From Escherichia coli 042 (lineage in GTDB: Bacteria; Pseudomonadota; Gammaproteobacteria; Enterobacterales; Enterobacteriaceae): DNA of 64,000 bases. Location: the NCBI RefSeq assembly GCF_000027125.1, contig NC_017627.1, one strand, 5' to 3'. The stretch's first letter is position 1, and each line of letters opens with the position of its first letter. This document shows, in pieces, positions 34,701 through 35,995 of the stretch. Position numbers: made by a program.

Positions 34701-35995
34701 TGCTGGATTGAACATATCAAAATCAGGCAATTACACAAATCTATGTACAGGCTTTATCCGATAGTTTATTGACCTATTGCACCATCACGTTCAAGCTTCT
34801 CTCTTATAGCCTCAATAATATACGAGCTAAAATCCAGAGATGTTTTACTGGTCGCTTTAAGTTCCGCATGAGCTTCAAAATACGACAGCGGTATGGCCTT
34901 AAGATTCTTAGCCTTCGTCCTGGCAGCCACGGGACGACCTGAAACTTCCTCTGCACCTTCATTTGGCTGAGACGAGGCTGTTGCTGTTACGGCAGAAGAA
35001 GAAGTTTGTAATCTGGCAGAATCCACCAGGTTTTTCAGTTTTTCAGCCTGTGCACTAAATTTCGCTTTGCTCATGAGATAACCAAGGATGTTTGTTAGAT
35101 ACTTAAAAGATATCCATTAAAAGCCCAAAGAATACTATATGGATACCCAATAGATACACCTTACTGTTTGTTATTTTCAATCAGATGATTGATTTCTTCG
35201 ATCAGGGCAATAACTTCCTTACCTCCTGCCGAATAGCGCCCATGAACAGACTCAGTGATTCCCATCCCAGTCTCAATGACATCCTCAAATTCTGCACGAG
35301 CAGAAATGCGGCTCTTCATCAGCTTCAGATGTTTGAACGATGGCAGGATTGCATCAAGCTTAGGGAATTTCTTCTTGTTAGGATTAACTTTACAGAGATA
35401 CAGGTGAGCAGTTATATCGGTTCCCATGATAGAGCTGATTTCGTCCAGTACTCCATCAAAATGCATCAAACCAATACGCTCAGTCAGGGAGTCTTTTGAA
35501 GGGACAATAACGCAGTCTGCAAAGGCAATCGCAGTACGGGTAAGATCTGAGTCAAATCCCCCACAGTCAATAAGTAACGTCTTATCGCTGTTCTTGTAGG
35601 GAGTCATAATTTCGATTAACTCATCCACTGTTTTGGGTACTTTCACGGAAATTTCTTTTCCTTCAGGTCTCAGCCCCAGAATGATAGAAAGCCCGGTATG
35701 AGTATCCAGATCAACTGTATCAGACTTCATTTCACCAACAATGTTTACGGATGAAGTTGTCTTACCCACACCACCTTTGGGATGCGTATTAGCAATAACA
35801 GGCACAGTGTATCTCCAGAATCCACATGTAATACCCATAAAGCTCCCCCGAAGACACCTTTCGGATATTCAAGAGGTACTCAATAGATGTTTTTTACTCT
35901 ATACCGGTCCTGCATGTCAACAGAATCTGAAATACCGATAATATATCCATAAGATATCCGAATGAAGTGGTCAACAAAAACTGGCCACCGAGTTA

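Follow-up and report, generated by a model that had tools for sequence, protein, structure and literature searches.

ParG, the partner protein in the ParF-ParG-parH system of TP228, combines a flexible N-terminal region with a C-terminal ribbon-helix-helix (RHH)-like domain, and the repeats upstream in TP228, which consist of 4-bp boxes, overlap the promoter. For the Arc repressor, the spacing between subsites is 11 bp. Among plasmids of the incompatibility (Inc) group IncI1, the only experimentally characterised type Ib partition system that was found is ParA/ParB(Hp7)/parS of pESBL, which is supported by transposon sequencing, stabilisation of mini-F, foci of green fluorescent protein, and electrophoretic mobility shift assays on GATAACAA octamers, and in which ParB-bound arrays lie on both sides of the operon (PMC7602700). 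Another gene pair, parAB_R64, is present in 48% of 460 I-complex plasmids and has been stated to be 100% conserved in pESBL (PMC10286972). The latter statement is unsupported, as blastn detects no similarity in either direction. Here we describe a homologue of the R64 pair, encoded in Escherichia coli 042 on a stretch of 64,000 nucleotides of contig NC_017627.1 (the window), where a gene for a ParA-like ATPase and a gene for a small partner protein of 102 amino acids are accompanied by arrays of 11-bp repeats. The explanation that we favour, as a probable though by no means assured one, is that this locus is an R64-type type Ib partition cassette, a relic of the plasmid backbone that was cut by the insertion sequence (IS) IS911 and by a 1.8-kb deletion near an IS256 fragment, and that it is still working.

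Two open reading frames are present on the minus strand, one at 35161-35838 containing a deviant Walker A box and the other coding for the 102-residue protein (Table 1). In the preliminary description of this DNA, the pair extended to 35838, where an ATG is situated. This ATG lies within the upstream repeat array, and the start of parA is the GTG at 35805, which is ATG in R64 and is preceded by the ribosome-binding site GGAG (35813-35816). Since the public annotation of the protein in R64 and other plasmids and an alignment of seven homologues, all of which begin just ahead of the Walker A box, place the start at this position, ParA consists of 214 residues. Except for the start codon, the protein is the same as R64 WP_001144036.1. 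The deviant Walker A box, KGGVGKTT, comprises residues 10-17, and there is no N-terminal DNA-binding extension. K10, G11, G12, G14, K15, and T17 are invariant across the ParA family alignment, and the residues of Walker A, A', and B are all present and family-invariant. The motif occurs only once in the window, in ParA, and neither a second Walker-type ParA nor any homologue of ParM or StbB was found across the 64 kb. The family profile of ParA matches ParF (4dzz) over positions 1-209 (E=2.7e-11) and ParA (5u1g) over positions 1-211 (E=1.9e-11), that is, over the full length, and judged by these matches the ATPase is ParF-like, as had been proposed. The NCBIfam model ParA_partition is matched with E=1.9e-14 and 53.7 bits, short of its equivalog cut-off of 180, and relative to this model ParA is a member of a divergent subfamily rather than an equivalog.

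The flanks at 35090-35160 and 35840-35960, in which GATA-rich repeats and a possible centromere had been noticed, contain arrays of degenerate 11-bp iterons with a consensus of about TTGGGTATCCA, and their regularity lies beyond chance. Examples of the 11-nt unit, written in gene orientation, are CGGATATCTTA, TGGGTATCCAT, TGGATATCTTT, and TAAGTATCTAA, and the core of the unit approximates the palindrome GGATATCC. Cores in the upstream array, which is 157 nt long, are of the GGATATC, GGGTATT, or GGTGTCT type, and this array includes a TTGACA hexamer at 35916-35921. The autocorrelation of bases is highest at lag 11, with z-scores of 4.9 for the upstream array and 3.3 for the intergenic one, which also scores z=2.9 at lag 22, whereas the parA coding sequence has no such peak. 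When the intergenic region is stacked in an 11-nt register, its information content reaches z=6.4 relative to shuffles. The arrays, 243 nt in all, contain 5 copies of GKRTATC, a motif picked after inspection of the data, whereas its frequency elsewhere in the window predicts 0.17. The signal came from these periodicity and register analyses; a generic repeat finder gave only short, noisy families.

The noise of generic repeat finding and the degeneracy of the units might suggest that the repeats are chance AT-rich sequence without function. Homologous cassettes were compared from plasmids of Klebsiella (two), Yersinia, Enterobacter, Aeromonas, and Actinobacillus. In each of the cassettes fetched, a spacer of 61-95 bp separates the ParA gene from the gene for the small protein that follows it, and in the non-coding DNA of every one of the seven plasmid homologues a period of 11 bp ranks first or nearly first among the lags. 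Arrays are situated upstream and within the spacer, and all of these cassettes but that of Aeromonas have one downstream as well. The motifs differ among lineages: Enterobacter has the GGGATTTCC type and Yersinia GTATTCT, while TGTACA is found in both Aeromonas and Actinobacillus. With position and 11-bp phase kept while the sequence diverges, the repeats look as arrays bound by a cognate protein would. Lag-11 values of z=3-6 in independent lineages, with differing motifs at the same three positions, and a signal that is lost at the very point of divergence between the window and R64 leave a chance origin with a negligible probability, and on these comparative data that reading is effectively refuted. 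The flanking repeats thus look like putative centromere or operator iterons, and the suggestion that they are a candidate centromere gains from the conservation of position and phase in the seven cassettes. A published description of the R64-type centromere was not found in the searchable literature.

The partner protein is less easily classified. It belongs to no Pfam or NCBIfam family, its only match in Pfam being a sub-threshold one to DUF3950, and sequence and profile searches against PDB chains identified no relative. An exhaustive profile search for homologues yielded no more than 78 clusters (at 50% identity), whose members are without exception small proteins. Where NCBI names such homologues, it is mostly as "molecular chaperone GroEL" and in a few cases as "hypothetical protein", while many are unnamed; the partner bears no resemblance to GroEL. 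Compared with R64 WP_000030199.1, the protein carries a single substitution, P34S, situated in the linker. Alignment of the family divides the protein into three parts: QAEKLKxLVGSARLQTS is conserved at the N-terminus, the linker varies, and the C-terminus, KAIPxSYFEAH...LDFSSYIIEALREKLERDG, is strongly conserved. An arginine finger in the N-terminus was considered and discarded, as no basic residue there, R21 included, is conserved across the family. In the AlphaFold model, a helix at residues 3-19 is followed by disorder at 27-46, an extended segment, and helices at 65-74 and 79-97, so that the C-terminal domain is predicted to be strand-helix-helix. Fold searches with the whole model were uninformative; the best fold match of the partner is single-chain Arc. 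The matches, with modest scores, are single-chain RHH dimers, as an RHH hypothesis predicts, and the predicted fold may therefore resemble that of RHH dimers. The preliminary description had called the pair ParA/ParG-type. The ParA part of this name holds, but membership of the partner in the ParG family does not, as hhalign gives a probability of 0.07% against ParG (<1%) and Pfam contains no ParG or RHH match. A relation to Hp7 of pESBL was likewise rejected by hhalign. By analogy, the partner would have the role of a ParG-type adaptor, but it stands outside the ParG family. Whatever its family, the combination of ParA with this small protein has been kept in plasmids of Klebsiella, Yersinia, Enterobacter, Aeromonas, and Actinobacillus.

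The identities of the two genes, their intactness, the architecture and conservation of the repeats, and the history of truncation are observed directly, and by analogy with type Ib systems they suggest a mechanism. Dimers of the 102-residue protein would bind the pseudo-palindromic cores (about GGRTAYCC), which lie 11 bp, or one helical turn, apart, and this spacing would load the dimers cooperatively on one face of the DNA, both upstream of and between the genes. Where the upstream array overlaps the promoter, binding of the partner would repress it and so autoregulate the operon. The N-terminal helix of the partner would contact nucleoid-bound ParA-ATP, stimulate its ATPase activity, and in this way position the plasmid copies, as happens in other ParA systems.

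A different role is conceivable if the repeats are only an operator, for autoregulation or for control of neighbouring genes, and the ParA-like protein acts outside partition, in positioning or transfer as MipZ or VirC1 do. Such a role agrees with the overlap between the upstream array and the -35 hexamer and with the Pfam matches of ParA, of which AAA_31 and MipZ lie above the cut-offs while VirC1 is weak. Yet arrays are also placed between and downstream of the genes, where a promoter is not needed, the best structural relatives of ParA are plasmid partition ATPases, and across hosts the cassette is always located in plasmid maintenance regions, beside resolvases, rep genes, or ParMR. With these features, a role restricted to an operator and a non-partition ATPase appears quite improbable, and partition remains the preferred function of the cassette.

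The segment 34755-35962 (1,208 bp) has 98-99% identity to about 1,180 plasmids in PLSDB, mostly conjugative plasmids of the IncI type, and is found in 739 of 5,426 complete E. coli genomes. Its nucleotide identity is 98.7% to R64 and 97.9% to pAA-EA11, an IncF-type plasmid of enteroaggregative E. coli (EAEC). In R64, the order of genes is resD, ParA, the 102-residue gene, a gap of 413 bp, ParM, ParR/StbB, and impCAB. In pAA-EA11, ccdAB-resD-parA-parB-parM-parR are contiguous and have 98.3% identity to R64 over 5.4 kb, and in both plasmids umuCD, after parR, also belongs to this contiguous backbone module. As the same module forms contiguous backbone in both, the pair is not cargo-borne; by this comparison it is a displaced relic of a stability region that IncI1 and pAA backbones have in common. 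The pair had been proposed as a possible second system stabilising the virulence cargo inside an IS1-bounded segment. Two inverted IS1 copies of 768 bp with 99.6% identity (27025-27792 and 40254-41021) do bracket the segment with pet and the pair, whereas the cargo origin has to be given up in view of pAA-EA11 and R64. Inverted pairs of IS3 and IS1 surround the aaf-usher/pet region and are substrates for inversion of the virulence segment. Within the 413-bp gap of R64 (46423-46835), the downstream 11-bp array occupies the first ~90 bp; the rest is presumably parC of ParMR, and two types of centromere may thus adjoin each other.

Table 1. Features of the partition locus and of the rearrangements around it; coordinates refer to the window.
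Feature	Coordinates	Strand	Details
parA	35161..35805	-	214-residue type Ib ParF-like Walker ATPase; GTG start at 35805
Small partner, putative centromere-binding protein	34766..35074	-	102 residues
Upstream iteron array, putative operator and centromere	35806..35962	-	~14 in-phase 11-bp units
Intergenic iteron array	35075..35160	-	8 units of 11 bp, 86 nt; consensus TTggGTATCca
Downstream array stub	34755..34765	-	ACTATCGGATA; ~8 further units in R64, deleted in the window
IS911-like (IS3-family) end, right junction	35963..36811	-	Terminal sequence TGAAGTGG from 35963; orfB 35993-36811
IS256-family terminal fragment, left junction	34552..34754		202 bp; second copy at 49516-49717
IS3 copy	33242..34553	+	99.85% identical to inverted copy 20233-21544 (1,312 bp)
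resD-ccdB-ccdA, separated half of the module	12612..13965	-	resD 12612-13418 (268 residues), ccdB 13419-13751, ccdA 13726-13965

Both ends of the R64-type homology in the window coincide with insertion sequences. On the right, homology stops at the last nucleotide of the upstream array and the IS911-like end begins with the next one. On the left, it ends at 34754/5, 11 nt past the stop codon of the partner gene and inside the first downstream iteron, where it meets the IS256-family fragment and then IS3. The genes resD and ccdAB are 21 kb away from parAB, whereas in pAA-EA11 and R64 resD directly precedes parA. As the breakpoints at 12624 and 35962 of the window map only 34 nt apart in pAA-EA11, the stability region appears to have been split by one ancestral break, which was probably linked to IS911. 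The closest relative, CP056609, has the same right junction and 1.8 kb more on the other side, made up of the downstream array, then parM with a frameshift, and then stbB, and there the same IS256 fragment abuts stbB, 1.8 kb further out. Since CP056609 retains this extra 1.8 kb, the window carries a further deletion. In CP056609 (4640-5990), parM is frameshifted and stbB/parR is intact, and the ParMR half of the module seems to decay ahead of the ParA half. Taken as a whole, the finding is an ordinary backbone stability module eroded by insertion sequences, and what is added here is that its partner is mislabelled, that its iterons are organised in units of 11 bp, and that it stems from the backbone.

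The condition of the remnant can be described by its substitutions. Compared with R64, the 954 coding nucleotides contain four synonymous changes, the change leading to P34S, and the ATG-to-GTG change of the start codon, and the 243 non-coding nucleotides contain ten changes. Seven changes are unique to the window when CP056609, an IncI-gamma plasmid, and R64 are considered together, and all seven lie either in the start codon or within the upstream array (35805-35927), with none in the intergenic array or elsewhere in the 954 coding nucleotides. One of them, a G-to-A change at 35869, alters the best palindromic unit, and another, an insertion of 1 bp at 35850, causes a phase shift. Because both genes and two of the three arrays survive, and because the Aeromonas homologue does without a downstream array, the cassette is, as far as its sequence allows a judgement, probably still operable. 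The downstream array may indeed be dispensable, given that the Aeromonas plasmid lacks one naturally.

Several points weigh against a working cassette. The window-specific changes upstream could be decay, though they could also be a retuning of expression, and the register of the downstream array, with z=6.3 in R64, drops to 0.8 in the equivalent part of the window. A consensus scan revealed neither a sigma-70 promoter on the gene strand nor a terminator; TTGACA is paired with no better -10 than the poor TAAAAA, at a spacing of 18-19 nt, and no defined promoter is claimed. A more distant member of the family keeps the gene pair without detectable periodicity. A functional study of the R64-type pair was not found in the searchable literature, and the ParA- and ParM-type operons of a related pAA plasmid have been judged incomplete and unlikely to contribute (PMC11950199).

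These points can be joined into an account in which the locus is an inert relic, its genes being intact only because the rearrangement is recent, and in which other functions, such as ParMR elsewhere, toxin-antitoxin, or the replicon, serve the plasmid. Loss of the downstream array and of parMR would be expected for a relic, as would the confinement of window-specific changes to the upstream array and the start codon and the pseudogene state that parM has already reached in CP056609; moreover, the study of the EAEC 042 plasmid pAA lists only ParM/ParR as its partition system (PMC2808357). On the other side, both reading frames are complete and have changed mostly by synonymous substitution, two arrays with 22 iteron units in total remain, a natural homologue has the same two-array layout, and no other partition ATPase is encoded in the 64 kb. 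On balance we regard an inert relic as a possible but rather unlikely outcome and retain the reading of an eroded cassette that still functions.

The published verdict on the ParA-type operon of pAA deserves comment, as in pAA-EA11 the genes for ParA, the 102-residue partner (labelled GroEL), ParM, and ParR are all intact and all three arrays are present. As both genes and all three arrays exist there, that verdict (PMC11950199) probably reflects the mislabelled partner. In the O104:H4 outbreak strain 2011C-3493, R64-type parAB-parMR resides on the IncF plasmid pAA-EA11, whereas pESBL-EA11 carries an unrelated type Ib par beside impCAB. This arrangement is compatible with avoidance of partition incompatibility, which is speculative. 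It would fit a wider proposal, in which the R64-type pair represents an uncharacterised type Ib subfamily, defined by a centromere-binding protein that lacks a Pfam family and is widely mislabelled GroEL and by a tripartite centromere of 11-bp iterons spaced by one helical turn, with arrays ahead of parA, between the two genes, and behind them. In this proposal, the remnant in the window would be active as the Walker-type system of pAA and would exert partition incompatibility against the many IncI1 plasmids that have the same iterons. In O104:H4, the pAA plasmid has the R64-type par and the co-resident IncI1 plasmid has a different par in the same slot. We advance this proposal as a tentative and on the whole doubtful one. 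The partner and its 11-bp iterons bear on the inheritance and exclusion of EAEC virulence plasmids and IncI1 resistance plasmids.

A comparison with known systems places the locus closest to parA-parB of R64 and of ColIb-type IncI1 plasmids, which is essentially the same locus, with an identical ParA, a partner differing in one residue, and matching upstream and intergenic arrays. The window differs from R64 in the missing downstream array and parM-parR, the separation from resD, the GTG start, and the changed upstream array. Some genes that have been called by similar names are not relevant here, namely "parAB" of the IncL/M plasmids pCTX-M3 and pOXA-48, which are ParMR-type systems, and "parB" of pCT, a ParB-nuclease-like gene of the leading region. 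The pESBL system, which sets a precedent for partition by such a locus, resembles it in being type Ib, with a small Walker-type ParA, a partner of ~100 residues without known ParB homology, and arrays flanking the operon, and in occupying the same backbone slot beside impCAB. Nevertheless, the ParA proteins are only 24% identical, the partners are unrelated, and parS of pESBL consists of tandem 8-bp GATAACAA units without a spacer. Neither the window nor R64 contains the array of GATAACAA octamers, and blastn does not detect either locus in the plasmid that carries the other. Identity of the two systems was thus rejected, since the primers and probes in the supplement of the pESBL study and the pESBL record itself specify another ParA, ParB, and parS. 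With ParF-ParG-parH of TP228, the locus shares an ATPase whose profile matches ParF from end to end, a partner with a ParG-like plan, in which a flexible N-terminal region precedes a C-terminal domain that may be RHH-like, and an upstream array that overlaps the putative promoter, whereas the partner has no sequence relation to ParG, the iterons are 11 bp long, and arrays also lie between and downstream of the genes. In the summary given in PMC7602700, par2 of pB171 (ParA, ParB, parC1, parC2) is similar in being a type Ib operon with arrays upstream and downstream, of which the upstream one is also regulatory. It is adjacent to ParMR, as is the case in R64 and pAA-EA11. In contrast to pB171, the two systems of R64 are in tandem and not divergent, and the R64 type adds a third, intergenic array. 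Finally, the spacing of sites by one helical turn fits RHH dimers bound side by side, as for the Arc repressor, but the arrays described here comprise 8-14 sites instead of two, and the protein that would bind them is coupled to a ParA ATPase.
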